From the NCBI GenBank assembly GCA_048886185.1, contig JBHLKY010000012.1, positions 1 through 32,000 on the forward strand: a stretch of 32,000 bases of DNA, given 5' to 3'. Below the pieces are notes generated by a model. It saw only the letters and a list, made by a program, of their open reading frames with translations, was not told the DNA's origin and made no database searches. The stretch is from Candidatus Hermodarchaeota archaeon. GTDB lineage: Archaea; Asgardarchaeota; Heimdallarchaeia; Hodarchaeales; Hodarchaeaceae. This document shows, in pieces, positions 3,318-27,950 of the stretch; positions within the stretch are counted from its first letter, which is position 1, and each line of letters begins with the position of its first letter. The position numbers and the translations under genes were made by a program.

Positions 3318-4577
3318 TTAGTTTGCTAAGATTGTGTTAGGTTCTTGAAATTCACAGAGGTCAGTGGATTTTCCAGTTTCTAAGACTTCGGAAACTACTT
3401 CACATATTTTTAGTGGTAATTTAAAACGAGTTCTCAAGTTTTTTATGCTCATATGAGAGATATCTATTGGAGATATCTCAATTGCTTTAGCACCTTTGGT
3501 ATAAGGAGAAACAACTCTCCAAGGTTTCTCTTTTATGTTTTGATAATAATAAGCTAAGTTATGGAGAATCGTACTCAATAGATAATTCTTTTGGTACACT
3601 CCAGGAGGAATATAACGTGGGATCCTATCTGAGATACCAAATTTTCTGCAATATTCGTGAACAATTTTAGAGGCATTTAAATTCATTTTACTATGAGGGA
3701 TAGGGGCTCCATATTGATTGTTATTGCTATAAAGATCCTGATATAGTGATATTAAGCTTGGAAAATGCTGTTTTATAGTTTTTAAATACTCTCTCTTGTT
3801 TCTTCCTGGTTTGAGGGTTAATCCACCTGGTAAGATGAATTCTGCATTCACATCTCGAGCTTTTTGAATTATTGATTTGAGATTCTCCTCTCTATCACCA
3901 ATTCCAGGTAAAATTGGCATCAGTATTATTCCCCCATGTAACTTATTATGCCTTACAATTTCTAAAGCTTGGAATCTTTTTGATGTAGAAGGAGAATTAG
4001 GTTCAAAAATCTTTCTTACGTTTTCTTCAAATAATGTTATAGAAAAAGACACATTAGCATAGTTCAAATTATTAATTTCGGAGATTATGTCAAGATCACG
4101 TAAAACTAACGTACTTTTTGTTAGAATACTAACAGGTATCCCAAAATCACGACTTATAGTAAGAATTTGTCGGGCTACCTTGAACTTTTTTTCAGCAGGT
4201 TGATACAAGTCACAAACTCCTCCACCAACCGCGATAGGAGAACATTGTGAGTTCTTATGTGTTGGTTGAGTTTTTGCAGAGATAGATATGAATGATTCCA
4301 AAGTATCTCTCTTGGGTCTAAAATCTGGACGATATCCAAGTTTAAGAAGCTCTTTTTCATACTTTTTAGCAGCATCCACCTTTACTCTAATATGAGTACC
4401 AAAATTGTGAATTCGATACCACTCAGCTTTACCATCGCAATATATACAGTTATGCTCACAGCCGCGGAAAGGATTAATACTCCCTGCAACCCAAAACCAT
4501 GAGTCTGGAGCAGGATAGAGATTTAATACTTTAGAGTGACTCTTTACAGTCTGGTATCTAATCCCCAATACGAACAC
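3318..4577 (-). CDS. Radical SAM protein, SplB/Rv2578c-like, with C-terminal PolX-N-terminal (HhH)-like domain
   Basis: INPFRGCEHNCIYC (CxxxCxxC), DLYQPAE, ILTKS, VSFSITL, EPNSPS...RF, MPILPGI; the tail resembles the PolX 8-kDa domain. Confidence 0.88.
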   Translation of the reverse strand: MFVLGIRYQTVKSHSKVLNLYPAPDSWFWVAGSINPFRGCEHNCIYCDGKAEWYRIHNFGTHIRVKVDAAKKYEKELLKLGYRPDFRPKRDTLESFISISAKTQPTHKNSQCSPIAVGGGVCDLYQPAEKKFKVARQILTISRDFGIPVSILTKSTLVLRDLDIISEINNLNYANVSFSITLFEENVRKIFEPNSPSTSKRFQALEIVRHNKLHGGIILMPILPGIGDREENLKSIIQKARDVNAEFILPGGLTLKPGRNKREYLKTIKQHFPSLISLYQDLYSNNNQYGAPIPHSKMNLNASKIVHEYCRKFGISDRIPRYIPPGVYQKNYLLSTILHNLAYYYQNIKEKPWRVVSPYTKGAKAIEISPIDISHMSIKNLRTRFKLPLKICEVVSEVLETGKSTDLCEFQEPNTILAN

Positions 4578-4772: not shown

Positions 4773-5054
4773 TTATAATTTCACAAATCTCATGAAAATG
4801 GAGTGTGATGCCAAAAGGTAAAGACTTTCTCTTAGATCTTGCAAATTTGGTTTCTTTTGAACCAATTCATATTTACGGAGCTGTCTCAAACCATATTGGA
4901 TTGTACGTTCGGAATAAGGTAACTCTTTGACAATATCTTTGACTGAAAGGGGTGTTTTCCTATCCTCAAGTAATTGAAAAATCGCCTTTGCGCTCGGGGA
5001 AATCTTAATTTTCCTCTTTAGAACTGCGCTGTCACTGGCGACGATATGTGACAT
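4773..5054 (-). CDS. Small winged-helix transcriptional regulator (archaeal MarR/ArsR-like)
   Basis: SPSAKAIFQLL..PLSVKDIVKELPYSERTIQYGLRQL..ELV...DLRESLY is a typical wHTH pattern. Confidence 0.85.
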   Translation of the reverse strand: MSHIVASDSAVLKRKIKISPSAKAIFQLLEDRKTPLSVKDIVKELPYSERTIQYGLRQLRKYELVQKKPNLQDLRESLYLLASHSIFMRFVKL

Positions 5055-5170: not shown

Positions 5171-6349
5171 TTATTTCAAATTTTTTTTCGAGGTCTGCCT
5201 AAAAGACTCTAAAATAGTCTGGGCTTTTTTAAAATAGGACCTTTTATTCAAAAGGAGATTGGAGTCTCCTAGTAGTTCTGGATATAAAAATAACAATTGT
5301 AGAAGATCCTCACTAGTATTAATTCCTGTAGATCGAATCCATCGCTTTATTTTTTTTGTCTCGGCAGTTTGGGGAAAAGATATCAATGAATGAAGTAAAT
5401 GATCGAGTCTATTCTGTTCTTTAGTAGTTATTTTCCAATCCTGTCCTAATTGTATTAATAACCTTTTTGTTTGGATTGGTTCTTTAGATAATAACAATAA
5501 TAGTCCAAAAAATCTGATCCATTTGTCGTGAGAGAGGATTTCTTTAAATTTTGTGAATATGATTTCTGACTTGTCACAATCAAAGCTCAATAAAGGAAAG
5601 TGGGGAAATAATGCGTCTAATGTTTGTGTTTCCCATAATAAGCAAAGCCCCTTTCTTGGATCAGAAAGCATCAATAATTTGAAAAATTCTTTCTTCAGAG
5701 TAGTATAGTTGTGGAACTTGGCAGTTTTCCCAATTACATTAGTGGCAGCTAATAAATCGGGATGGATTCGCAACTTTGGAAATTGGGAAATAAAGCGGGC
5801 GAGTCTAATAATACGTGTTCCATCTTCTGATAATCTAGTGAAAGCATTTCCTATCATCTGTACGGTACATTTCTGGATATCAGCATATCCATTAAATATA
5901 TCAATAAATTGATGATTTTTCGGATCAAAAGCAATTGCATTAAATCGAAAGTCCCTACGAGGTAAATCCTCTTCTAAAGAATTTACAAAAATGACTTCTG
6001 GAGGACCAAGTTCAGTATGAATCTCTTGGCGAAATGTGCATATATCAAAAACAGCATTCTTTCCGATAATTGCTAATATTGTGCCGTATTTGCTTCCAAT
6101 TGGTTTAGTTTTTACACCTTTTTCATTAAGAAACTTCTCCATTTCCTTGGGATGAGCATTGGTTGCAATATCAAAATCTTTTACTGGAAATCCCAATAGA
6201 AAATCACGTACCGCGCCTCCAACAATATAGACGTTTTTCCCATTTTCCCAAAAGATCTTCATGATTGATCGAAGCTCAGATGGAATAAAATTATTAAAAG
6301 CGGAAGCCCTGTCTTGTAAGCTTCTTCTGGTAGTATATTTTGTAGGCAT
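5171..6349 (-). CDS. cca: Class II tRNA nucleotidyltransferase (CCA-adding/PcnB superfamily)
   Basis: Motif A YIVGGAVRDFLLG..KDFDIAT, motif B RRDFRFNA, motif D SEDGTRIIR; no PcnB poly(A) polymerase GRRF signature (IGSKYGT instead). Confidence 0.88.
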   Translation of the reverse strand: MPTKYTTRRSLQDRASAFNNFIPSELRSIMKIFWENGKNVYIVGGAVRDFLLGFPVKDFDIATNAHPKEMEKFLNEKGVKTKPIGSKYGTILAIIGKNAVFDICTFRQEIHTELGPPEVIFVNSLEEDLPRRDFRFNAIAFDPKNHQFIDIFNGYADIQKCTVQMIGNAFTRLSEDGTRIIRLARFISQFPKLRIHPDLLAATNVIGKTAKFHNYTTLKKEFFKLLMLSDPRKGLCLLWETQTLDALFPHFPLLSFDCDKSEIIFTKFKEILSHDKWIRFFGLLLLLSKEPIQTKRLLIQLGQDWKITTKEQNRLDHLLHSLISFPQTAETKKIKRWIRSTGINTSEDLLQLLFLYPELLGDSNLLLNKRSYFKKAQTILESFRQTSKKNLK

Positions 6350-6515: not shown

Positions 6516-6776
6516 CTAAATCTCATGATACAAGGGCGATGAAATATAGATTTGAGGATAAAAGTTGTTAAATAATTCCTTTAACTGAAGCCTTTGAAGC
6601 TCAGCCTCTTTCAAAGTCTTATAGAATCCCAATTGTAATAATTTTCGTCCTTCCAGATAGATTTGAAATCGGGAGGTTTTAGAATCTTTCACAATAAGCA
6701 GTTTCAAGTCTTCTTTTGGTACAATTCCACTATAATCTATAACTGGGGAGAATAAAAAGAATGAATACCCCTCCAA
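6516..6776 (-). CDS. Small hypothetical protein (start uncertain)
   Basis: 86-codon ORF from TTG, on the same strand as its neighbours and filling the gap between them; LGFYKTLKEAE resembles SPOR/AP2-like beta-alpha motifs. Confidence 0.45.
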   Translation of the reverse strand: MEGYSFFLFSPVIDYSGIVPKEDLKLLIVKDSKTSRFQIYLEGRKLLQLGFYKTLKEAELQRLQLKELFNNFYPQIYISSPLYHEI

Positions 6777-6869: not shown

Positions 6870-7409
6870 TCAACCATCCTTAAAACAGTCACAATATAAT
6901 GAATACAATCCAATTAATGTTTTTCCATCTTTTATTATTCCTTGATCAATATAGGAACGAATTTCATTGAATGAAAGGATTTTTATTTGTGAGATCTCAT
7001 CTGAGGAGAAGAGTACTCCTTTATGAGAGATACCCGTCCCTTTATAGATATATAATACTTCAGAAGAATAACCAATGGCAGGAACATATTTTATGAGTAG
7101 TTCGAGATTTTTTACACTATATCCCGTCTCCTCTTTAAATTCTCGCCTAATGCAGGCTTCAGGATCTTCTTCAGAATCAATTTTTCCAGCAGGGATTTCT
7201 AAAGTCTCTTCTTGAATCGAATAGCGATATTGCTTCACGAATACTATCCGTCCATCCTCCAAGATGGGTACTAATGCAGCTGCATCGGGATGTTCCACCC
7301 GAATTCGCTCTGTCACTCTTTCCGAGGGGAGTTGTACCTCATCAAGATTAACAGAAAAAGATCGTGCTGAAATTGTTGCAATTGTTCTTAATTTTGTTTC
7401 TTTCGGCAT
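6870..7409 (-). CDS. NUDIX hydrolase, ADP-ribose pyrophosphatase-like
   Basis: HPDAAALVP, VKQYRY, Nudix box EIPAGKIDSEEDPEACIRREFKEETG, DGKT. Confidence 0.92.
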   Translation of the reverse strand: MPKETKLRTIATISARSFSVNLDEVQLPSERVTERIRVEHPDAAALVPILEDGRIVFVKQYRYSIQEETLEIPAGKIDSEEDPEACIRREFKEETGYSVKNLELLIKYVPAIGYSSEVLYIYKGTGISHKGVLFSSDEISQIKILSFNEIRSYIDQGIIKDGKTLIGLYSLYCDCFKDG

Positions 7410-7478: not shown

Positions 7479-8972
7479 TTAATATTCTTTTCCTACATAG
7501 ACATAACAAGTGGCTGGTTTTCCACATATGAAGCATTTTTCATCCTTTTGGGGAATGATATTGTCATCAATCTCCCGCATATCTCTTCCTCTAACTGTAG
7601 CAGCTAGCTGGTCTTTGATTTCCATAGCACAATCTTCACCATCAAGATCGATTGAGCACCATGGAATCTTAAAGATCTTCTTCTCATTGATCCTTTCTTC
7701 AAGCTCATCTATTGTTTTAACATCTGAAATACTTTCATCGAATTTCTTTTGGGCTATCTTGCTTATATTTTCTGTAAGAGAAGCACCAAACTCCTTCACT
7801 GTTCTTACCAAATCATCAAAAACAATTGTTGTCCTTTCTCTGGTGTCACGTCTGAAGATTGTTATTGTCTTTTCTTTAACTTCCTTATTTCCAATTTCAA
7901 ACCGTAATGGAACGCCTTTCATTTCCCAAAAATAGTATTTATCTCCAGGCCTGTTATCACTAAGATCAATCTTGACCCGATAACCTTTTTTTCTCAAAAT
8001 ATCTTCGATTTGGACACAATATTTTTCAATATACTTAATGTCTTTTTTCTTTGGGATTGGTATAATAACAACCTGTTTTGGAGCAACATCAAATGGGAAG
8101 ATTAGACCATTGTTATCACCATGAACTGCAATCATTCCTCCAAATATTCGCGATATAGCCGGGCCATAACAAGTTTGATAGGCGATCTTTTCTTCCCCAT
8201 CTTGATCTGTATAGGTAATATTGAATGCTTTAGCAAAATTCGATCCTAGAAGATGAGTAGATGGTAATTGCAGAAACTTCCCATCAGGCATCAATGTATC
8301 TGCAGCATAAGTATGAACAGCACCAGCAAACTTATCCCATTCAGGTCGCTGGAAATAGATTATTGGGATTCCAAAAATATCTTTCAGAACATTATAGGCA
8401 ATTTGCATATCCTCTCTAGTTTGCGCAATAGCTTCTTCCATCGTCTTAAAAACGTTATGAGACTCTATCCACCAAAATTCTCGAGATCTTAGGAAAGGAC
8501 GAGTAGATTTACCTTCGTATCTAAAAACACTACCACTTTGATAAATCTTTAAGGGGAGATCTCTCCAACTTCTAATCCACAAGGAGTATAATGGATACAT
8601 TGCAGTTTCGGAGGTTGGCCTGAGTACTAATCTTTCTTCCAAAATATCATTTCCAGCTCTTTCTATCCAGAAGACTTCAGGATTGAATCCTTCAACATGA
8701 TCCTTTTCAACTTGAAAATTTGACTCAGGAATCACCATTGGAAATATAACTGGTTCATGACCGAATCTGTTCAATTCCTCTTCATAAAAATCGAACATTT
8801 TTTTCATTGCTATTGTAGCAAATGGCATACATACAATAAACCCTTTGACATTATACCGCATGTCAGCGAGCTCTGCTCGCTTTACAATCTCGGTAAACCA
8901 TTCAGAAAAATTGTCTATTTTATCGATATTGAAAGTTTCTAGAACTTCTTCATTATACTTAGACATGATCAC
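7479..8972 (-). CDS. proS: Proline--tRNA ligase, archaeal/eukaryote type
   Basis: FSEWF..IV..AELAD, LRPTSET, SWRDLPLK, FRYE..TRPFLRSREF, QTCYG, GVPLRFEIG, C-terminal Zn site C..CG.PA. Confidence 0.97.
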   Translation of the reverse strand: MIMSKYNEEVLETFNIDKIDNFSEWFTEIVKRAELADMRYNVKGFIVCMPFATIAMKKMFDFYEEELNRFGHEPVIFPMVIPESNFQVEKDHVEGFNPEVFWIERAGNDILEERLVLRPTSETAMYPLYSLWIRSWRDLPLKIYQSGSVFRYEGKSTRPFLRSREFWWIESHNVFKTMEEAIAQTREDMQIAYNVLKDIFGIPIIYFQRPEWDKFAGAVHTYAADTLMPDGKFLQLPSTHLLGSNFAKAFNITYTDQDGEEKIAYQTCYGPAISRIFGGMIAVHGDNNGLIFPFDVAPKQVVIIPIPKKKDIKYIEKYCVQIEDILRKKGYRVKIDLSDNRPGDKYYFWEMKGVPLRFEIGNKEVKEKTITIFRRDTRERTTIVFDDLVRTVKEFGASLTENISKIAQKKFDESISDVKTIDELEERINEKKIFKIPWCSIDLDGEDCAMEIKDQLAATVRGRDMREIDDNIIPQKDEKCFICGKPATCYVYVGKEY

Positions 8973-12966: not shown

Positions 12967-14922
12967 ATGGATCCTCATCAATGGTTCGATTTAATGAAAG
13001 AAGCTCTAAGTTTAGTTGAATCTGAAGTGGATAACTCTCAATTTGAATTAATGCTCTTAATTCAGCCAGCTGCGGAAATTCAAACTTTTTCTACTTCTAA
13101 GAACCAAGAAGATGTGAAAAACACTACTTTAGTTGGACAAGCATGGAATAGCATTATTGGTACTTTAACTAATGAACTTCAATTGGGGACCTGGAATTCT
13201 CTTACTATAAAGAGTCACAATAAGGTATTTACAATGTACTCTATTGGTTTCGATGTAAATCTTATACTTATATCGGAAGCTGCTATAGACTCTTTAGATG
13301 TCCTAAAGGTAATTCTAAAATTCATTTTCAAAATTGGTTATCAGAAAAAATATGAAACAGTAGGACTAGTATCCTCAGAAGGCTTTCCAGTTTGGCTTAC
13401 TTCTATAGAAGAAATGGATGATTTTCTCTTTGCGATTTCAATTACTTCGCTTCTTTCTCTAGTAGAACGTATAGATTATGAGGTTTCTGCTGGTGGAATA
13501 GGCGCTTGTATCCTCCAAGGAACTGAAAATTTACTATTAAATGTTGCTTTTAATCCTTCACAAGATTTAGCTCTCGCGGTGACACAACAAGGCACAAACT
13601 TAGATGAAGTAGCTCTTGATCCAGAATTGAGTTCATTTTATCAAAAAATTGTAGATCCTCTAATCTATAGCGCATTCGTACCTGAGATTATTGATGAAGA
13701 TCGAGAACGGATGCTAGAAGAAATTCGTCAAGCTTTTGAGGGTGAGACAACAGATGAAGAGATTGAAACTCTAAGTGCATTCAACACCGAAATGCTCCAA
13801 TCTCTTGAAAATGAAATTAAGACAGTTGCTAAAAAATATGGAGCAAATGAAATATCTATAGGATATCTTCGTAAAAGAATGAGGTTACCTTCCGAAGTCC
13901 TCTCTATGGCTTTAGAATATCTCATTGAAGAAGGAGCGATCAGTGGAAAGGTTGGAAAGGATCGTGTATCAGGACATGAAATATTAGTCTTAGATTCAAG
14001 AGTTGATATTAGTAAGGAAGATGAAGAAAAATTAAAAATTATTAAAACTCAAATTGATGATCTTTTTTCACCAATTAAACCCTTTCTTATACAATTGCCT
14101 GAGATTCAACCAGTAAAAAAAGCTGTTCAGGAAGGTATAACCGAAGCTTTAGGGGAATTTCAGATAATGATTACTCTATCTGATACTGACCCTCTATACT
14201 TATTGGCTAATGATTTACGAATTGTAGGGACACACCTAGAAAGTTCTGTGAAAACATTGAAACTAGTGAAAAACCAGCTGTCAGAAACAGATCAAGAGGA
14301 TGTTCTTCGAAATGAGTTAGAACGTCGACACAATAATTTAACTGAGAGAATTCATGAACAAAAATTAACAGCCATTGGGAAAATTACCCGGTTTTATGGA
14401 GATCTTCTAAACTCTTATCGCTTACTTTTTCGATTACTTCCCCTACCAGCTACATTTAGAAGATCTAAGAGTAGGAAAAAAGCTATCATTATTTTCAAAT
14501 GCGAGGCGAATACTTGCGATGAAACTTTCCGAATACAAGATAATCCGTCTACATGGGTTAAATTACGCGTTTTTGCAAGAGTTCTTGGCATTCAGGAGGA
14601 TTTTCCTAAAAAAACTACACCTAGTGTCTCCAAATTAAGAAAAAATTTGGCAAATCGTCTTAACAAACTTACCACTTTATTGAGAAAAGCAGAAGAGAGA
14701 ATAGACTTTCTACCTGAAGATTTTCTTATTATAGAAAACATGGAAGAGCTATTAATCACAAATACTCAAAGAGACAATGCGATCAACACCCTCCGAAAGG
14801 GTATATTTAAACGAGGTACTGTAAAGAAAGACTTCTATTCGCTTTACACACAATGTAACTCCTGTAACAGATGGTATTGTCCAAATCATATGGCAACAAC
14901 TAATAAATGTAAATATTGTTGA
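12967..14922 (+). CDS. Multidomain protein: two Roadblock domains, PCI-like winged helix, coiled coil, split cross-brace Zn finger
   Basis: Roadblock 1 at aa ~1-125; Roadblock 2 (VGLVSSEGFPV...SITSLLSLVERI) at aa ~126-230; EISIGYLRKRMRLPSEVLSMALEYLIEEGAISGKV; CEANTC plus C-terminal CNSCNRWYCPNH..KCKYC. Confidence 0.8.
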   Translation: MDPHQWFDLMKEALSLVESEVDNSQFELMLLIQPAAEIQTFSTSKNQEDVKNTTLVGQAWNSIIGTLTNELQLGTWNSLTIKSHNKVFTMYSIGFDVNLILISEAAIDSLDVLKVILKFIFKIGYQKKYETVGLVSSEGFPVWLTSIEEMDDFLFAISITSLLSLVERIDYEVSAGGIGACILQGTENLLLNVAFNPSQDLALAVTQQGTNLDEVALDPELSSFYQKIVDPLIYSAFVPEIIDEDRERMLEEIRQAFEGETTDEEIETLSAFNTEMLQSLENEIKTVAKKYGANEISIGYLRKRMRLPSEVLSMALEYLIEEGAISGKVGKDRVSGHEILVLDSRVDISKEDEEKLKIIKTQIDDLFSPIKPFLIQLPEIQPVKKAVQEGITEALGEFQIMITLSDTDPLYLLANDLRIVGTHLESSVKTLKLVKNQLSETDQEDVLRNELERRHNNLTERIHEQKLTAIGKITRFYGDLLNSYRLLFRLLPLPATFRRSKSRKKAIIIFKCEANTCDETFRIQDNPSTWVKLRVFARVLGIQEDFPKKTTPSVSKLRKNLANRLNKLTTLLRKAEERIDFLPEDFLIIENMEELLITNTQRDNAINTLRKGIFKRGTVKKDFYSLYTQCNSCNRWYCPNHMATTNKCKYC

Positions 14923-14952: not shown

Positions 14953-15744
14953 ATGAAACTAGTGGTAGGAATCGATATAGGTTCGTTAACAGCAAAAATT
15001 GTTGTTCTAGCGATTCCCAACAGATCAAAGGACGAAATCGAGCAGAAATATTCCTTTATTAAACGCGTAGGTTATAATCCAGCGGGGATTGCCATTGATC
15101 TTATAAATAGTGCAAAAAAGTCTATAGGGGTAGAAAATTTTTCCTATATGATCTCTACTGGTTATGGGAGAAAATTAGTTGAGAATGCTGACGAGAGAAT
15201 AACTGAGATTACATGTCATGCTACAGGAGCCTTTTTTATCAATCCTGATATTCGAACAATAATTGATATTGGAGGACAAGATTCCAAAGTAATTCAAATA
15301 AATGAAAAAGGTCAAATTCAAGATTTCGAGATGAATGATAAATGTAGTGCAGGGACAGGACGCTTCTTGGAAGTCATGGCTAATGCTTTAGAAGTAGAAC
15401 TGTCAGAATTTGGTAATCAAGCCCTAATTTCTACAAATCCAGCTTCTATATCAAGTATATGCACTGTATTTGCAGAATCAGAAGTAATTTCTCGTCTGAA
15501 TCAAGGAGCTAATAGAGTTGATATTATTGCCGGAATTCACAAAACAATTGCCAATAAAATTACTGCATTAGCAGCCCGAGTAGGAATCAAACCATTAATA
15601 GCCTTAACAGGTGGAGTTGCTTTAAATCCAGGAGTGAGAAAAATGCTTGAAAAAAACTTCAACTTACCTATTGAGGTTCCTGTGCATCCCCAAATGATTG
15701 GAGCATTAGGTGCTGCTTTGTTAGCATCTAAAAATCTAGTATAG
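14953..15744 (+). CDS. 2-hydroxyacyl-CoA dehydratase activase (HgdC/HadI; BcrAD/BadFG ATPase family)
   Basis: GIDIGS..K, TGYGR, EITCH, DIGGQDSK, MNDKCSAGTGRFLE, SSICTVFAESE (both [4Fe-4S] Cys present), TGGVA.N. Confidence 0.93.
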   Translation: MKLVVGIDIGSLTAKIVVLAIPNRSKDEIEQKYSFIKRVGYNPAGIAIDLINSAKKSIGVENFSYMISTGYGRKLVENADERITEITCHATGAFFINPDIRTIIDIGGQDSKVIQINEKGQIQDFEMNDKCSAGTGRFLEVMANALEVELSEFGNQALISTNPASISSICTVFAESEVISRLNQGANRVDIIAGIHKTIANKITALAARVGIKPLIALTGGVALNPGVRKMLEKNFNLPIEVPVHPQMIGALGAALLASKNLV

Positions 15745-17690: not shown

Positions 17691-19586
17691 TTAGTTAGAT
17701 CTTTTTGTTTTTCGGGAAAATATAACAAGTATTCCTATGAATAGAATAATGGATATGTGATTTAAAAATAAACCTGTTTGTTGGATTTGAGTGGTAGTTG
17801 GATTCATTTGCTGGGTCATCGTGCTTACTAGAATGGAAACTATAGAAGAAGATGTAATGATTATTGGTTTCCATAAGACATAATAAGGTCTCATGAATTC
17901 AATTGGAAAAATGGTTTCATTTAGAGAAGAATCTATAAAATAAAAGCGATAGTAATATTCTAATTCCCTACTTAGCCCAATAAACTCATACTGACCAGAA
18001 TCCTTGAAATCTAAATCTTGTAAAACCAATTCTTGATATCCAGCAACACCCCACTCGATCTCTATTCGCACAGGGCGATCAATAGTCCATTCTACTAAAA
18101 TACCTCTTGAAGTATTGAAAAACTCAAGGTGAAGGATTACTGGTTGGTAAGGGGATGGTTCAAATCCCCAAGTGGTTGAGAATGCCAAATTAAAGGTTTT
18201 TGGATAAAGTCGTGTAATGTTATTTTGATCAGCAATCCATAAACGATAATATACCCTGTAACTTACTGGTGCTTTAATTAAAATTGTTCTTGATGTATCA
18301 AGTGTTGTATTAATGTACTTTATTGTTTGATAACCTGCTTCCCCCCATTCTGCAATGATTTGCGTTGGAATATCGGTTTTTAGAGATAATCTGACACCTG
18401 CAGTCGTATTAATTGCATTAAATGAGACTACTTGAGGAGAAAACTCTGAATTTATAAAAACTGATGGTCTCCATTTATTATAGTAATTTCTGATTAATGA
18501 ATTGTTCGTAAGCCTATAAATAACCTCTAACTGGAAAACATGAATCTTTAGATAGTCAAAATTGACTTTACCTTTTCTTGCGTATTTCGAAAGCCCGAAA
18601 TAAGTATCATATTCAGGAAGACTAGATTCAATTGCTGCACTTCCTTCATAAAATAATTGGCTTGCTAGGGCCTTTTTTTGCGTACGAGGGTGTTTTGAGT
18701 ACTCATAAAGTCCAAAAATGGCATAAATATGACCGTTTAAGATAAATTCTAAGTCTTCCTCTTGTTCACAGGGCGATTCGAGAAACCATGTTTTATTGAT
18801 TCCCTCAATAAAAGTAAATCCTCCTTTTTCCCGTGTATAATTGTTTCCTGTGAAAGTGATACCCCCCTCTTCCCATTCATAAGTAAATGTTTCCAAGACT
18901 TTGTTTACTCCTTCTAAATAGGAACTATTTCCAGTGACTTCTTCTGCTCTAAGAAGAACTTGAATAATCAATCCTTGTGCTAACCCTGAGACCCAAGGTA
19001 CAGTTTGTTTATGCCAAAGTGGGATTTTCCAATTATATAGGAAGAAACCATCGTTTGTCATGTTTTTCATTAAAAAATCAGCAATTTTCAGAAGTATACT
19101 ATAATTGTTAATCTGATAATTAAATAATGCGAAGAAAGCTGTTGTTACAGGATTGTATTTCCAACCTAATTCATAATCGTGTAAGCTAATTATAACATAT
19201 TCTCCGGTAAACTGATAGATTCCTTCTTTAAAGTGGCGTTCAATAGAAATTAAATCTTTATAAACTATTTTCCAACCATCAATATCATATTCCTTATAGA
19301 AGGAGTTGTTATTAGGAACATCTGGTGAAACAAGATTTGTTAATCCTTCTTTATGATGATAATCTATATTTTTTGTCTTTTCAAGGATTTTAGGATTTTT
19401 AATTTCTTTTGAATTCGAAAATAAGGAAGTATTGTATGAATAGGTAAAAAAGGATGAATAGGATATTAGGATTATAAGCATAATGAATTGAATCATATTC
19501 TTAGACAGTCTATATTTCAAAATAAATAAGCTAATTCCAACATTAGGTGTTTCCACCTTTATTTCCTCTCTGATAGATTTTTTCAA
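17691..19586 (-). CDS. Membrane-anchored D-glucuronyl C5-epimerase-like surface glycoprotein with two Ig/Fn3-like repeats
   Basis: WVSGLAQG, YL..V..VL..F, GG, WFLESP, FILNGHIYAIFGLYEY, DYLKIHVFQL; N-terminal hydrophobic segment; Thr/Gln spacer, TM helix and basic tail at the C-terminus. Confidence 0.82.
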   Translation of the reverse strand: MKKSIREEIKVETPNVGISLFILKYRLSKNMIQFIMLIILISYSSFFTYSYNTSLFSNSKEIKNPKILEKTKNIDYHHKEGLTNLVSPDVPNNNSFYKEYDIDGWKIVYKDLISIERHFKEGIYQFTGEYVIISLHDYELGWKYNPVTTAFFALFNYQINNYSILLKIADFLMKNMTNDGFFLYNWKIPLWHKQTVPWVSGLAQGLIIQVLLRAEEVTGNSSYLEGVNKVLETFTYEWEEGGITFTGNNYTREKGGFTFIEGINKTWFLESPCEQEEDLEFILNGHIYAIFGLYEYSKHPRTQKKALASQLFYEGSAAIESSLPEYDTYFGLSKYARKGKVNFDYLKIHVFQLEVIYRLTNNSLIRNYYNKWRPSVFINSEFSPQVVSFNAINTTAGVRLSLKTDIPTQIIAEWGEAGYQTIKYINTTLDTSRTILIKAPVSYRVYYRLWIADQNNITRLYPKTFNLAFSTTWGFEPSPYQPVILHLEFFNTSRGILVEWTIDRPVRIEIEWGVAGYQELVLQDLDFKDSGQYEFIGLSRELEYYYRFYFIDSSLNETIFPIEFMRPYYVLWKPIIITSSSIVSILVSTMTQQMNPTTTQIQQTGLFLNHISIILFIGILVIFSRKTKRSN

Positions 19587-20165: not shown

Positions 20166-22442
20166 TCATCGAAGAGCCAGTTGAAAGGAGAGATTTTTCT
20201 GTTCTTGTTGTCCAAATCCAATTAAATCAGCTTGGCCTCGCTTTATGGCTAGTTCTGCAGTTTCAACATCGAAATCACCACTACAAACGATGGCGATGTG
20301 AGGAAGATCATCTTTTACTTTTTGGATAAATCGCTCAACACCTGCTTCTTGATCTGATAAATAGTCGATACAAAGTAGCTCGATCCCTGCTTTCTCGATT
20401 GATTTAACGACTATAGATAGTTCATCTTCAGATAAACCATGAAATGGAGCCGAGATATAAAAAGCAAGCATCATGTTTAAAGGAAGATTTGCACGAATCG
20501 CCGTTGCCACTTCTAATGGAAAACTAATACGCTTCTTAAGCGATCCCCCGTATTCATCGCTTCGTTGATTGTATTCTTGTGAGAGAAATTGACCAAGGAG
20601 ATCTGGCTTGTTATGTGTTACGCTTGAGGAGATTTCAACAATATCAAAACCCACACGTGCAGCACGCATTGCAGCTTCAACGAAAGAATCACGAATCTCA
20701 ATAATTTCATCGTCTGATAAAGAACGAGGGGTATCATGATTTATGATTGGGATTGCTGAAGGTGCTATTGGTTGTACACCACATATTGATTTCTTGGTCG
20801 CACCACCTGCATGAGTCAATCTTATACCAATAAGAGATCCGTATTCATGAACTTGATTGACTACTTCCTTAAGCCGAGGAATTACATAATCATCATGAAT
20901 TCCAATTTGATAGAGATGATCCTTTCCTGAAGGAGTTATATAAGCAGGCTCCAGATAGACAAGTCCCGCACCACTCTGAGCTATTTTAGTATAATGGTTA
21001 ATCGCGTCTCGAGTAATCTGGCCATTTACCAGTTCCCCTGCATTTATCTCTCCGATCTTGGTTGAAGGCATTACTACTCGATTTCGAGCTTGCAGCTTTC
21101 CCAATTGGTAAGAACGAGTCAGAATTGATTCTTTTGGAACACGATTTCTAATTATTAAAATCATCAGGGTTGCGATTGTATATAGGGTAGCAGTAAACAT
21201 GAAAACATAGAGAAAACCAAAATTATCTATAATAAATCCTCCAAATGAGGCAGAAAGCGACCAGAACATTCCCCAAGCTAAAGTTTCTAATGAATTCCAT
21301 TTAGCTCTCGAAGTTGATGGAACTACATCCATGACAATAGAACGACTCACAGGTCCAGCTGCATTCATTAAAGCATTACGACTAATATAAAAAATCACCA
21401 GAAGTAATACAGATATAGGAAATGAGATGATCTGATTCTGATATAATAAAAGGTTTACCACCAAGCCCAATAAACAAATAATTGCGAGACCCTGAGTTAA
21501 GAATACTGAACCAATACGCCCAAAGATTCTAATCATCCGTTGAGCTAGAAGTGCTGCTGATCCTGTAATAATAAATGTTGTACCAGTTATAAGATATGTA
21601 AAGAACGGTTTCAAGCCATATCCTATTGTTGGGTTAGCAAATAAAATAGGAAAAAACGCTACTGTAGCCCCAGCACCAAATCCAATGATCACTCCACTGA
21701 TAACTAAAATTGTAGGAGTTATAGCATCATAATAAAACGGATATCCGAATAATGTTACATATGGTTGATCTTTGGTATTTTCTTTCACCAAAGTCCCTGA
21801 CTCAGGAGAAACTGACTTTTTTACCTTAATTACAATTGCCTTATCGTCAGAAGCAAATATCACCGTAATGTAGGCAATTATTGAACATATTGCTCCAATG
21901 AAAATGAGATTTTGAAGCAAAGTGAAATCCCACGCGTCACCAAGGATCAATGTAAGCCCCGCTGCTAAGTAAGGCCCTGCAGCTGATGCTAAAAGGTTAG
22001 CAAAAAACATTTTTGCGAAAACTTGACTTCGACGACCTGGTTCAATAGAATCAGCAATTAATGCCTGTGCAGCCGGACCAGATAATCCCCAACCTATTCC
22101 TCCAAAGGTTTCACTTAGAAAAAGAACAGATAGTGCTACATGAGGAGTTTCAGTCAATGTAGTTGAATAAATAAGCGCAATTTGAGCGAAAACGCCAAAG
22201 AATACAGAGATTCGGATGAGGAGATCTCTCCGATATTTATCTGCAAAATATCCAGAAGGAAACACAAAAATAGTAGAAGCTAATCCTTGTATTGTAAAAA
22301 GATTCCCCAAGATCAAATTAGATTGTCCTAATCCTTGAGGTGGATTGTTTGTTACATAGATAGAGAAAGCAGTCTGAATTATACCCATTCCGATAGCAAA
22401 ACCAATTGTTTGGATATAAGCCAACTTGATATTCCAATTCAC
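20166..22442 (-). CDS. MFS transporter fused to a degenerate NADH:flavin oxidoreductase (Old Yellow Enzyme) domain
   Basis: aa ~1-435 is a 12-TM MFS (GYFADKYRR); then LGKLQARNRVVMP, GAGLVYLE, RLTHAG, APSAI, GFDIVEI, NQRSDEYGGS, ADLIGFG in the same frame with no stop. Confidence 0.88.
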   Translation of the reverse strand: MNWNIKLAYIQTIGFAIGMGIIQTAFSIYVTNNPPQGLGQSNLILGNLFTIQGLASTIFVFPSGYFADKYRRDLLIRISVFFGVFAQIALIYSTTLTETPHVALSVLFLSETFGGIGWGLSGPAAQALIADSIEPGRRSQVFAKMFFANLLASAAGPYLAAGLTLILGDAWDFTLLQNLIFIGAICSIIAYITVIFASDDKAIVIKVKKSVSPESGTLVKENTKDQPYVTLFGYPFYYDAITPTILVISGVIIGFGAGATVAFFPILFANPTIGYGLKPFFTYLITGTTFIITGSAALLAQRMIRIFGRIGSVFLTQGLAIICLLGLVVNLLLYQNQIISFPISVLLLVIFYISRNALMNAAGPVSRSIVMDVVPSTSRAKWNSLETLAWGMFWSLSASFGGFIIDNFGFLYVFMFTATLYTIATLMILIIRNRVPKESILTRSYQLGKLQARNRVVMPSTKIGEINAGELVNGQITRDAINHYTKIAQSGAGLVYLEPAYITPSGKDHLYQIGIHDDYVIPRLKEVVNQVHEYGSLIGIRLTHAGGATKKSICGVQPIAPSAIPIINHDTPRSLSDDEIIEIRDSFVEAAMRAARVGFDIVEISSSVTHNKPDLLGQFLSQEYNQRSDEYGGSLKKRISFPLEVATAIRANLPLNMMLAFYISAPFHGLSEDELSIVVKSIEKAGIELLCIDYLSDQEAGVERFIQKVKDDLPHIAIVCSGDFDVETAELAIKRGQADLIGFGQQEQKNLSFQLALR

Positions 22443-25684: not shown

Positions 25685-27784
25685 TCATCTAAGGACTCTT
25701 CGTCGGATTTTCGCGGTTAATATTTGTTGCAAGAACACCTGTTTCAAGTATGTTGTTTTTTCAATTATTTTTTGAGTTGTGATTAATTTAGTATCAATAG
25801 CTGAGAGAATGTTTACAATGTCTTTTTGTTCGCTCAAAGGAGGGAGGAAAATTTGGATCGTATTAAAATCTGATCTGTTAATTCCTCCCACAACCCCATG
25901 GAATCTTTTTTTGATTTGGTTCTGGCAGATGGAAGAGAATAATAAATAAAATAGAAAATAATTATCCAAAACTTCCCTATCTTTACTTCTTACAATAAAA
26001 ATATGTTCATTAACAGCGATTTTCTCATAGGGTAAATCCCTTACTAGACCGACTTTCCCTGTAGTTGCTCCGTCTTTCACTACTAGAATATCATTCAACT
26101 GTACTTTTCCCTGTGAAAGGTTCTTATCATAGAATTCCTCTGGAATGAATTTGATATTCGTCCAAAGAATTTGACCTGAATCATTAATATGTTCTCCCCC
26201 AATACTGGCTACTACTCCCTCTTTTAATGCTCCACCTTTGGCTCTTTTCCCTGTTTCTAACTCCACAAACTCCCCCAAGTATACCTTACGCCATGTATCA
26301 GGAATGTTTTTCATTAAACTTTCTTCAAATCCATTAAAGATATCATCGATTTTCTGATTGATGTCCTTTTGTTTCTCGTCTAATTTTTTCAATTCAGAAA
26401 TATCAGAATTTAGCTGAGAAATGTTTTTTGGATCATCTTCCACAGTCGTCTCAATATAAAGGGGAATATTCAGATTATATCCATATTCTCTTATTTCTCT
26501 TAACGAAGCTACCCTTGAGAATCTTTTAATAGAATTAAAATTTTTGAATGCCATAACGATTTTAGCTATATCCTCCTCCTGTAAAATGTTCTTGGATCTT
26601 TCCTCTTTGTAGAGTTGAAATGCATCAATGAACAGTATCTTATTTTTTCGGTCTGGGTGTTTTTTCTTGTTAAGCAATACAATAGCTGCTGGAATTGACG
26701 TTCCATAAAAGAGATTAGGAGCTATTCCAATAATTGCTTCTATTAAATCATTGTCAACCAAAGCTTTTCGGATTTTTTTTTCATTACCTCCTCTGAACAA
26801 AATACCATGAGGAAATATCGCTCCCATTCGTCCATTAGGCTGTAATGTGGCTAACATATGCTGTAAAAAAGCCATATCGCCATATGATTTTGGAGGTATT
26901 CCATATTTAAAACGATTGTATGAATCATTTTTTGCTATTTCAATTCCCCAATGCGCTAGAGAAAAGGGGGGATTTGCGATAACGATATCAAACAGTATTA
27001 ATTGATCATCCTCAATCAGCTTCGGATTTCGAATTGTATCTCCACTTTTTATTTTAAAATTAGCTATTCCATGTAGTACCATATTCATAATACAAATTGA
27101 CCATGTATGTATGTTCTTTTCTTGCCCATAAAGTGATAAATTCAGCCAATTACCCCCGTTTCTTTTAATATACTCAACACATTGGATTAACATCCCTCCT
27201 GATCCTACTGTTGGATCTGAAATACACATTCCCTCTTCTGGTGAGAGTAATTCTACCAAGAGTCTGACAACCATATGAGGAGTATAAAATTCTCCTCCCT
27301 TCTTACCAGCTGATTCAGCAAACTGAGCAATTAAATATTCATAGGCCCTACCCAATATATCAGGGTCAGTTAAATCACAATTTCGTAGTCGTAGATTGCT
27401 AAAATGCCTAATTAGATGATTCACTGTTTCATTGGATAAACGGTCACTAATATCAAAGCTAATTCCCGTTAAAACCCCTTTTAAAACAGGGTTGTGTTTT
27501 TCGATTACATCACATGCCTTCATTAAAGATGAGGCGTTGAGTGCAGGCCATTGAGCTTGTTTAGGGATGAAAAATGCATAATTATCAAGTTTGTCCTTTT
27601 CAGAATTGTTCACATGTTGAATTTTCTTTTCAATTTCTTCTTCAAAAACATCATTTAATCGTTTTAAGAATAACAAGCTAAAAATATAGTGCTTATATTC
27701 AGAGGCATCAACACTCCCCCTTAAAATATTGCTTGCTTCCCAAAGATGTTTCTCTAACTCTTCTTGACTTATTTTTATGCCCAT
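25685..27784 (-). CDS. hsdM: Type I N6-adenine methyltransferase (HsdM) fused to a single-TRD specificity module (half HsdS)
   Basis: LW.ASNILRG..DASEYK.YI..LLFLKRL, LGRAYEYLI..FA, GEFYTP, DPTVGSGGM, NPPF; then IPDTW..VYLGE, TRD, LPPLSEQKDIV.IL..ID. ATG 27784 is preferred. Confidence 0.92.
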   Translation of the reverse strand: MGIKISQEELEKHLWEASNILRGSVDASEYKHYIFSLLFLKRLNDVFEEEIEKKIQHVNNSEKDKLDNYAFFIPKQAQWPALNASSLMKACDVIEKHNPVLKGVLTGISFDISDRLSNETVNHLIRHFSNLRLRNCDLTDPDILGRAYEYLIAQFAESAGKKGGEFYTPHMVVRLLVELLSPEEGMCISDPTVGSGGMLIQCVEYIKRNGGNWLNLSLYGQEKNIHTWSICIMNMVLHGIANFKIKSGDTIRNPKLIEDDQLILFDIVIANPPFSLAHWGIEIAKNDSYNRFKYGIPPKSYGDMAFLQHMLATLQPNGRMGAIFPHGILFRGGNEKKIRKALVDNDLIEAIIGIAPNLFYGTSIPAAIVLLNKKKHPDRKNKILFIDAFQLYKEERSKNILQEEDIAKIVMAFKNFNSIKRFSRVASLREIREYGYNLNIPLYIETTVEDDPKNISQLNSDISELKKLDEKQKDINQKIDDIFNGFEESLMKNIPDTWRKVYLGEFVELETGKRAKGGALKEGVVASIGGEHINDSGQILWTNIKFIPEEFYDKNLSQGKVQLNDILVVKDGATTGKVGLVRDLPYEKIAVNEHIFIVRSKDREVLDNYFLFYLLFSSICQNQIKKRFHGVVGGINRSDFNTIQIFLPPLSEQKDIVNILSAIDTKLITTQKIIEKTTYLKQVFLQQILTAKIRRRVLR

Positions 27785-27950
27785 ATAACTGTGCAATTTT
27801 CTTTGATGGTGTTTTTTTTGCATTTGATATGCCCAAGTCGATCATTCTGATGAATAATTTTTCAATAAAAAGACTTCTTAAAACCTTATTGAAATTGAGA
27901 TTTACTCAATCCTAAATTATGTATTCCAACCCATAGGGAAAATAATCCAA

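Follow-up and report, generated by a model that had tools for sequence, protein, structure and literature searches.

A tail-less, signature-deviant class II nucleotidyltransferase paralogue retained beside a long CCA-type enzyme in Hodarchaeales archaea

The stretch of DNA analyzed here (the window) comprises 32,000 nucleotides, bases 1-32000 of the 171-kb contig C12 (GenBank JBHLKY010000012.1) from a Candidatus Hermodarchaeota archaeon. The list of open reading frames (ORFs) and their translations revealed an uninterrupted ORF of 392 amino acids, designated P0001, which fills positions 5171-6349 on the minus strand, with an ATG start codon at 6349 and a stop codon at 5171-5173; the plus-strand frame across the same positions is riddled with stops. 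The encoded protein matches the Pfam head domain of class II nucleotidyltransferases, PF01743 (E-value = 2.7e-29; 102.5 bits against a cut-off of 23 bits), and also PF12627 (E-value = 8e-5). The catalytic head domain covers residues 40-161, encoded by 5867-6232 on the minus strand (5864-6232 in the genome profile search). The top NCBIfam model is NF009814 (Bacillus-type CCA enzyme) with 168 bits, which is under its cut-off of 290 bits, and P0001 scores far under the cut-offs of all other CCA, poly(A) polymerase (PAP) and A-adding NCBIfam models, such as TIGR01942 (PcnB; 120 bits, cut-off 306) and NF041569 (51 bits, cut-off 1440). A sequence match to 1miv_A was obtained at an E-value of 1.9e-29. 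P0001 is an intact, conserved class II nucleotidyltransferase gene.

A profile search of the host genome detected two PF01743 genes, P0001 and P0121. The latter is located on contig C5 (L003:5277-7235, plus strand), where it adjoins an 869-aa N6-methyltransferase-like ORF, and encodes a protein of 653 aa, in which a complete CCA-type class II enzyme with a dead HD motif (HQ) is followed by a P-loop kinase-like domain of approximately 190 residues ending in the P-loop GNVLTGKT. We refer to P0001 and P0121 as the short and the long paralogue, respectively. The long paralogue retains a GDYIDGRRP loop and KERIHTEFQKLL, and reaches 263 bits with NF009814 versus the 168 bits of the short paralogue. 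The two proteins are 37% identical, over head and neck only. Because a second, canonical class II gene is present, P0001 need not be the CCA-adding enzyme of this genome.

Homologs of P0001 form a short clade of about 65 sequence clusters (375-399 aa, 37-62% identical to P0001), past which the score falls from 233 to 131 bits, the level of bacterial CCA enzymes. Just two more distant members (P0243 and P0253) were found by an exhaustive HMMER search. The clade is restricted to family f1, to which the host belongs (families bear anonymous codes, to which named taxa were assigned from pattern and NCBI names).

To describe conservation within this clade, 32 short-clade sequences (36-62% identity) were surveyed. 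They share 36 invariant columns, which span motifs A-E and the B/A motif (all features given in the following lie on the minus strand). The first part of motif A, GGAVRD (residues 44-49; 6203-6220), has invariant G44, G45, R48, and D49, and both metal-binding carboxylates of its second part, DFD (58-60; 6170-6178), are invariant (D58 and D60). The B/A motif (invariant R107 and E109) lies together with an altered loop in TFRQEIHTELGPPEVIF (105-121; 5987-6037). Motif B, DLPRRDFRFNA (128-138; 5936-5968), contains invariant R131, R132, D133, and N137, and D150 and D157 of motif C are also invariant. In the nucleotide template of motif D, EDGTR (175-179), which together with motif E, RLARF (182-186), occupies 5792-5827, D176, R179, R182, and R185 do not vary, and position 175 is either E or D across the clade. 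Further invariant positions are E221 and, toward the C-terminus, W337, R339, G342, and S346 inside KRWIRxTGINTSEDLL. The invariance of motifs A-E and of the B/A motif shows purifying selection on catalysis and nucleotide selection.

These observations bear out what the preliminary description of the locus, prepared from the DNA letters and their translations, had reported for the protein: the motifs that it named are present (GGAVRD at 44-49, DFD at 58-60, RRD at 131-133, and EDGTR at 175-179), the loop before motif B is of nearly full length (TFRQEIHTELGPPEV at 105-119, only 1-2 residues under the length in 1MIV), and PIGSKYGTILAII occupies the site of the PcnB signature [LIV][LIV]G[RK][RK]F. 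Its remark that no HD domain is obvious also stood, since neither PF01966 nor PF13735 was matched in any of the 32 short-clade members, even at E <= 1.

Losses in the short clade were scored by column against 72 canonical relatives, a set of long paralogues together with enzymes from f6 and from bacteria. The Y, D, and R of the canonical loop, 91-96% conserved in these relatives, are missing from the short clade, whose loop, shorter by 1-2 residues, has the consensus ExFxxxG-PP, with a clade-specific G-PP, in place of the canonical Y.D.R(R/H)P. It has been reported that the conserved loop positions are required for A addition and that the loop of eukaryotic CC-adding enzymes is without them (PMC7014341, PMC2910056), and that loop families vary (PMC2910056). 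The Thr following RRDF, found in 93% of canonical enzymes, is likewise not retained. The neck signature has degenerated to TTLKKEFFKLL (216-226; 5672-5704), in which E221 is kept. The E and R columns of the canonical ERxxxExxxhh, conserved in 96-97% of relatives, are occupied by small residues throughout the short clade. An ER signature marks CC- and CCA-adding enzymes, whereas sR (a small residue followed by Arg) marks A-adding enzymes and PAPs (PMC2910056). The short-clade neck matches neither rule: the small residue is present and the Arg is gone.

The C-terminal half is altered as well. The body domain (approximately residues 255-353; 5291-5587), which contains the KRWIRxTGINTSEDLL motif, corresponds by homology to the HD domain of bacterial CCA enzymes and has lost the HD residues, with RFFGLLLLL in place of RLAALxHDIGKP. 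In an hhalign comparison, residues 20-353 mapped to positions 7-358 of a 465-position profile of bacterial HD-type CCA enzymes (probability 100%, E-value = 2.3e-66), and the last ~100 positions of this profile were unmatched by the short clade. At the place of the tail domain, the short paralogue has C-terminal helices (354-392; 5174-5290) with no counterpart of 1MIV residues 349-404, and the tail columns L, G, G, L, and N of canonical enzymes have no counterpart in the short clade. The tail anchors the tRNA elbow in solved complexes (PMC3925840), and the glycines of the human TRNT1 tail form a stack with the elbow pair G19:C56 (10.64898/2026.03.02.709036).

Predicted structures are consistent with this picture. 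The AlphaFold2 model of the short paralogue has a predicted local distance difference test score (pLDDT) of 90.8 and a predicted template modeling score (pTM) of 0.88, and Foldseek returned 1MIV as its top match (E-value = 1.2e-16). With alignment ranges from VIA-align, residues 17-392 of the model align with residues 1-348 of 1miv_A (338 aligned residues, root-mean-square deviation [rmsd] 4.1, Z 29.0), residues 8-392 with 1-381 of 5hc9_A, the tRNA-bound T. maritima enzyme (343 aligned, rmsd 4.8, Z 25.1), and residues 28-392 with 1-352 of 4wc2_A, the tRNA-bound Aquifex A-adding enzyme (318 aligned, rmsd 4.0, Z 22.5). The model of the long paralogue (pLDDT 90.4) aligns over residues 4-459 with all of 1miv_A from 1 to 404 (390 aligned, rmsd 2.9, Z 31.7). 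According to these models, the long copy has the full head-neck-body-tail architecture, and the short copy is predicted to stop where the tail should start.

We then analyzed the distribution of both paralogues in 83 species genomes of the class. In family f1, class II genes were detected in 18 of the 21 other genomes, and class I is essentially absent; 16 of these 18 genomes, including two single-contig assemblies, carry two copies, one of each paralogue. The short paralogue is present in 17 of the 21 sister genomes, and the long copy measures 650-700 aa across them. Family f6 has a single class II copy, family f4 has class II together with a sub-threshold class I match, and families f7, f5, and f3 have class I only. 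Three f1 genomes show other patterns. Neither class I nor class II was matched in G050 (87% complete, 20 contigs) and G066 (93% complete), and G048 (7% contamination) has no class II gene and a full class I match (361 bits) like that of f7. These patterns could be gaps, misbinning or a third route to CCA addition.

The host itself is archaeal, as the preliminary description had supposed. Its assembly (4.84 Mb, 96% complete, 4.96% estimated contamination) encodes ribosomal protein L31e, a family that among our controls matched solely the four archaeal genomes, and the prolyl-tRNA synthetase (ProRS) near P0001 is of archaeal type. No class I CCA enzyme was found in this 96%-complete genome with either TIGR03671 (E <= 0.001) or PF09249 (E <= 0.01), both of which matched all four reference archaea, so that the idea of a hidden class I enzyme was rejected. 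All named close homologs of P0001 come from metagenome-assembled genomes of Hodarchaeales, Heimdallarchaeota or "Promethearchaeota". Twelve consecutive genes, from an M19 peptidase to an asparaginase, are arranged collinearly in a closed 4.94-Mb genome with proteins that NCBI labels Heimdallarchaeota (57-85% amino acid identity), and the same block is partly or wholly collinear in eight further sister genomes. The GC content of the P0001 gene (0.339) and its GC content at third codon positions (GC3, 0.282) differ by less than one standard deviation from the values for long ORFs in the genome. The contig is an authentic archaeal chromosome segment and the gene is an old resident. The estimated contamination of the bin and the ultimately bacterial origin of the P0001 family would fit a gene from a bacterial contaminant, a chimeric contig or a recent isolated transfer; given the 171-kb contig, the flanks collinear with the closed genome and the eight sister genomes, the exclusively Hodarchaeales/Heimdall close named homologs, the genome-typical composition, and the archaeal-type ProRS, this explanation is vanishingly improbable, and on these data a bacterial or chimeric contig was ruled out. 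ARAGORN predicted 32 tRNA genes, 27 of which do not encode CCA, implying that CCA addition is essential in the host.

Around P0001, all genes considered are on the minus strand. The gene lies three genes downstream of the archaeal/eukaryote-type ProRS, as previously described (7479-8972; TIGR00408, 515 bits, above the cut-off), which synteny shows to be a conserved upstream neighbor. In between are a NUDIX hydrolase similar to NudE/ADP-ribose pyrophosphatase (6870-7409), conserved in 7 of 10 related loci, and an 86-aa ORF without family match (6516-6776; 3 of 10). On the other side, a 93-aa winged-helix (ArsR/MsvR-like) regulator (4773-5054; 5 of 10) separates P0001 from a downstream radical S-adenosylmethionine (SAM) protein of PA0069/Rv2578c type (3318-4577; 9 of 10). 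Intergenic gaps of 69-195 bp leave space for separate promoters. The radical SAM family is common in those families of the class that have no short paralogue, and its gene is located elsewhere in G056, a single-contig assembly. Functional coupling of P0001 to its neighbors was not supported, because the radical SAM gene is widespread regardless, the NUDIX protein is of NudE/ADP-ribose type, and the whole region is collinear; the order ProRS, NUDIX, (86-aa ORF), P0001, (winged-helix regulator), and radical SAM reflects general collinearity. With regard to the radical SAM proteins themselves, one or two PA0069/Rv2578c-type genes occur in most genomes of the class, and a second paralogue in the host genome (C27:14494-15678, minus strand) is 40% identical to the copy adjacent to P0001.

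Several other genes in the window deserve mention. A 758-aa protein (20166-22442, minus strand) is an unusual fusion of a major facilitator superfamily transporter (residues 15-346) and an Old Yellow Enzyme-type NADH:flavin oxidoreductase (446-745). A 631-aa protein (17691-19586, minus strand) contains a D-glucuronyl C5-epimerase C-terminal domain (PF06662, E-value = 3.9e-32), a domain best known from animal heparan-sulfate biosynthesis. At 25685-27823 (minus strand), a 712-aa fusion protein joins an HsdM methylase of type I restriction-modification to an HsdS specificity domain, and no HsdR restriction subunit was matched among the window proteins scanned against Pfam. Finally, a 651-aa protein without Pfam match (12967-14922, plus strand) is encoded directly upstream of a BadF/BcrA-type activator ATPase (14953-15744, plus strand); together they might represent an undescribed radical dehydratase-like system.

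To examine the origin of the two paralogues, a quick IQ-TREE phylogeny (LG+C20 PMSF) of 103 sequences was reconstructed. Strong support was obtained for each of three clades, the short one, which included its two distant members, the long one, and that of f6. The backbone was unsupported, and the short and long clades were not sisters. The bacterial neighbors of the short clade in this tree, P0278, P0281, and P0293, have loops and ER motifs of proteobacterial type, and for this reason their grouping with the short clade looks like long-branch attraction. An approximately unbiased (AU) test (LG+F+G4, constrained trees from fast searches) rejected neither short and long paralogues as one clade (P-value = 0.405) nor short, long, and f6 enzymes together (P-value = 0.163). 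This result is compatible with a duplication or with a second transfer, both of which it leaves open, as does a recent preprint discussed below (10.64898/2026.05.29.728689). A side result of the searches concerns three metagenomic giants, P0241 (1312 aa), P0244 (1453 aa), and P0268 (1455 aa), each of which has two to four class II head-domain-like stretches per chain. We also compared evolutionary rates in the nine genomes used for this purpose, all of which have both genes (36 genome pairs, which are non-independent). In 35 of the 36 pairs, conservation is lower for the short copy than for the long copy, with a mean identity of 53% versus 62% in head and neck and 39% versus 48% in the C-terminal part.

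Horizontal acquisition, one of the two origins considered in the preliminary description, agrees with these data, as the relatives outside the Hodarchaeales group are bacterial and the ultimate origin is therefore horizontal. A recent isolated transfer does not: with the gene in 17 of 21 sister genomes, conserved synteny, and ameliorated GC3, it is old and has been vertically inherited within the family. The other suggestion, that the gene may be relevant to the origin of eukaryotic CCA enzymes, is also not supported, because both our tree and the preprint place the lineage among "later-diverging" bacterial enzymes, and the preprint ties Heimdallarchaeaceae-type genes (f4), apart from the P0001 lineage, to eukaryotes.

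This preprint (Cassidy, Doktor, Betat, Morl, Prohaska; bioRxiv, August 2026; 10.64898/2026.05.29.728689) describes class II CCA enzymes in Heimdallarchaeia. In it, the Hodarchaeales ("Heim02") are class II-only, with "A and B paralogs" in some genomes, and their lineage groups with later-diverging bacteria, whereas the Heimdallarchaeaceae enzymes group with eukaryotes. The replacement of class I by class II in Hodarchaeales is thus already published. The lineage, the class II enzyme in place of class I, the two copies in some genomes, and the later-diverging bacterial affinity are the same as observed here, and the three genome patterns of the preprint are reproduced by our tallies. Its main text and supplements give the second paralogue no function or domain description and mention neither tail loss, loop and ER changes nor the kinase fusion in the other copy. 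What is new here is the tail-less, signature-deviant character of the short paralogue.

Based on these comparisons, a model for the pair can be proposed. A bacterial-type class II pair, of which P0001 is the short member, appears to have replaced the archaeal class I enzyme in one Hodarchaeales family. The short enzyme keeps the metal carboxylates, RRD, the EDxxR template for C and A, motif E, and the B/A motif for primer positioning; as all catalytic and nucleotide-selecting elements are kept, it has most likely retained the ability to add C and/or A at the 3' end of an RNA. The lost tail, loop residues, neck Arg, and HD residues are elements of canonical tRNA handling and of the C-to-A switch. 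Housekeeping CCA addition would be performed by the putatively kinase-fused 653-aa paralogue on C5, because it keeps every element that bacterial CCA enzymes keep and because family f6 manages with one such enzyme. The short enzyme may recognize an acceptor-like helix without measuring the elbow, and candidate roles include tRNA repair, partial (CC- or A-) addition, and tailing of other RNAs. Since both genes are stably retained, the short copy is probably not redundant.

Our preferred interpretation, to which the sequence comparisons lead us to give about even weight, is therefore worded as follows: the short paralogue may be a non-redundant accessory C/A-adding enzyme, with CCA addition as the housekeeping task of the long paralogue. 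Several points weigh against it. One sister genome (G053, 89% complete) has the short copy alone. In the preprint, one "Hodarchaeum" class II enzyme, the paralogue not being specified, adds full CCA in vitro, and terminal regions are described as dispensable for catalysis (10.64898/2026.05.29.728689), so that loss of the tail need not end the use of tRNA. Moreover, the G-PP loop with its intact B/A motif could represent a new, working loop family capable of full CCA addition, and for the lost neck Arg we know of no structure-based role to report.

Part of this evidence would equally suit a short paralogue that is a bona fide complete CCA enzyme, either redundant or condition-specific beside the long copy, which we regard as a minority possibility of some substance. 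Motifs A-E and the B/A motif are all invariant, the loop is almost full length, and the scheme of the preprint, which calls terminal regions dispensable, would class a loop-bearing enzyme as CCA-adding; two bona fide CCA-adding enzymes are reported for Dictyostelium (PMC7432833). However, the tail domain, the loop-family consensus, and the ER motif are gone, the short copy evolves faster than the long one, and the retention of both copies in nearly all sister genomes argues against plain redundancy. The same loop change could instead point to a split pair, in which the short enzyme adds CC and the long enzyme the terminal A, as in Aquifex, Bacillus halodurans, S. pombe, and Salpingoeca. The two genes tightly co-occur, and the conserved loop positions are absent from the short clade, an absence that underlies CC-only activity in eukaryotic CC-adding enzymes (PMC7014341). 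Such a division of labor is nevertheless unlikely, as the long copy has the ERxxxExxxhh of CC/CCA-type enzymes rather than sRxxxE, by which A-adding enzymes and PAPs are marked (PMC2910056), the short clade retains the B/A motif, which serves A addition, CC-adding enzymes keep the ER motif and the tail, neither of which the short clade has, and the related family f6 needs just one canonical enzyme. A CC-adding enzyme of the loop-deleted kind was rejected, because a loop of nearly full length is present.

The missing elbow-binding tail also raises the idea of an RNA-tailing polymerase acting on non-tRNA substrates, an archaeal counterpart of the CCA-derived bacterial PAP. In its favor, the loop consensus is not retained, the loop being reportedly dispensable in PAP (PMC2532741), and the E of ERxxxE has given way to a small residue, which is also the case in PAP and A-adding enzymes; E. 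coli PAP and 1MIV also fit the model to about the same degree (Z 28.4 vs. 29.0). [quoted passage not shown] Membership in the PAP class itself was rejected on the missing signature, in its full form [LIV][LIV]G[RK][RK]Fx[LIV]h[HQL][LIV], and the TIGR01942 score (120 vs. 306 bits).

A bolder version of the accessory-enzyme reading can be put forward tentatively and with some doubt. On the evidence of these alignments, the short clade might be a new, tail-less and elbow-independent type of class II enzyme, adding C/A onto acceptor-like helices or non-tRNA RNAs, that would have arisen from a bacterial CCA enzyme within Asgard archaea, in a manner similar to bacterial PAP, and would work beside the kinase-fused CCA enzyme in an RNA 3'-end repair or tagging system. 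The presence of a class II gene in Hodarchaeales adds no new principle to the published headline, and the lineage is not the one linked to eukaryotes. What matters is that two class II enzymes are maintained across an entire archaeal family and that one of them has shed the elbow anchor, the loop lever residues, and a near-universal neck arginine, with its catalytic and templating core preserved. The short clade is thus a natural experiment on which class II parts set substrate choice and the CCA stop, and a candidate enzyme for a new activity at RNA 3' ends of Asgard archaea.

Among known systems, the best match in both sequence and structure is the Geobacillus stearothermophilus enzyme 1MIV and, with it, the Bacillota/HD-type CCA enzymes (NF009814; PF01743+PF12627+PF01966+PF13735). 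The superposition takes in head, neck, and body (338 residues, Z 29.0) and motifs A-E are the same in kind, but P0001 is without the tail (1MIV 349-404), PF13735, the HD residues, the Y..D.RRP loop, and the ER pair, and has an extra conserved N-terminal helix (residues 11-19). The long paralogue, unlike the short one, has the full 1MIV architecture (1-404), a canonical loop, the ER motif, the tail glycines, and about 190 extra C-terminal residues. Bacterial PAP I (PcnB; 3AQL), a CCA-derived class II enzyme, resembles the model in fold (Z 28.4, rmsd 2.9 over 344 residues) and in the small residue ahead of the neck motif, and differs in its PAP signature, which is missing from P0001. In bacterial CC-adding enzymes the flexible loop is deleted, whereas the loop of P0001 is only 1-2 residues under that of 1MIV. 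The nearest precedent for a loop that is kept while its consensus is lost is provided by CC-adding enzymes from two eukaryotes, S. pombe and Salpingoeca rosetta; like the short clade, the two enzymes have a loop of normal length minus the loop-family positions (PMC7014341). These enzymes keep the tail, and the B/A motif, which is degenerate in S. pombe, is invariant in the short clade (PMC7014341).

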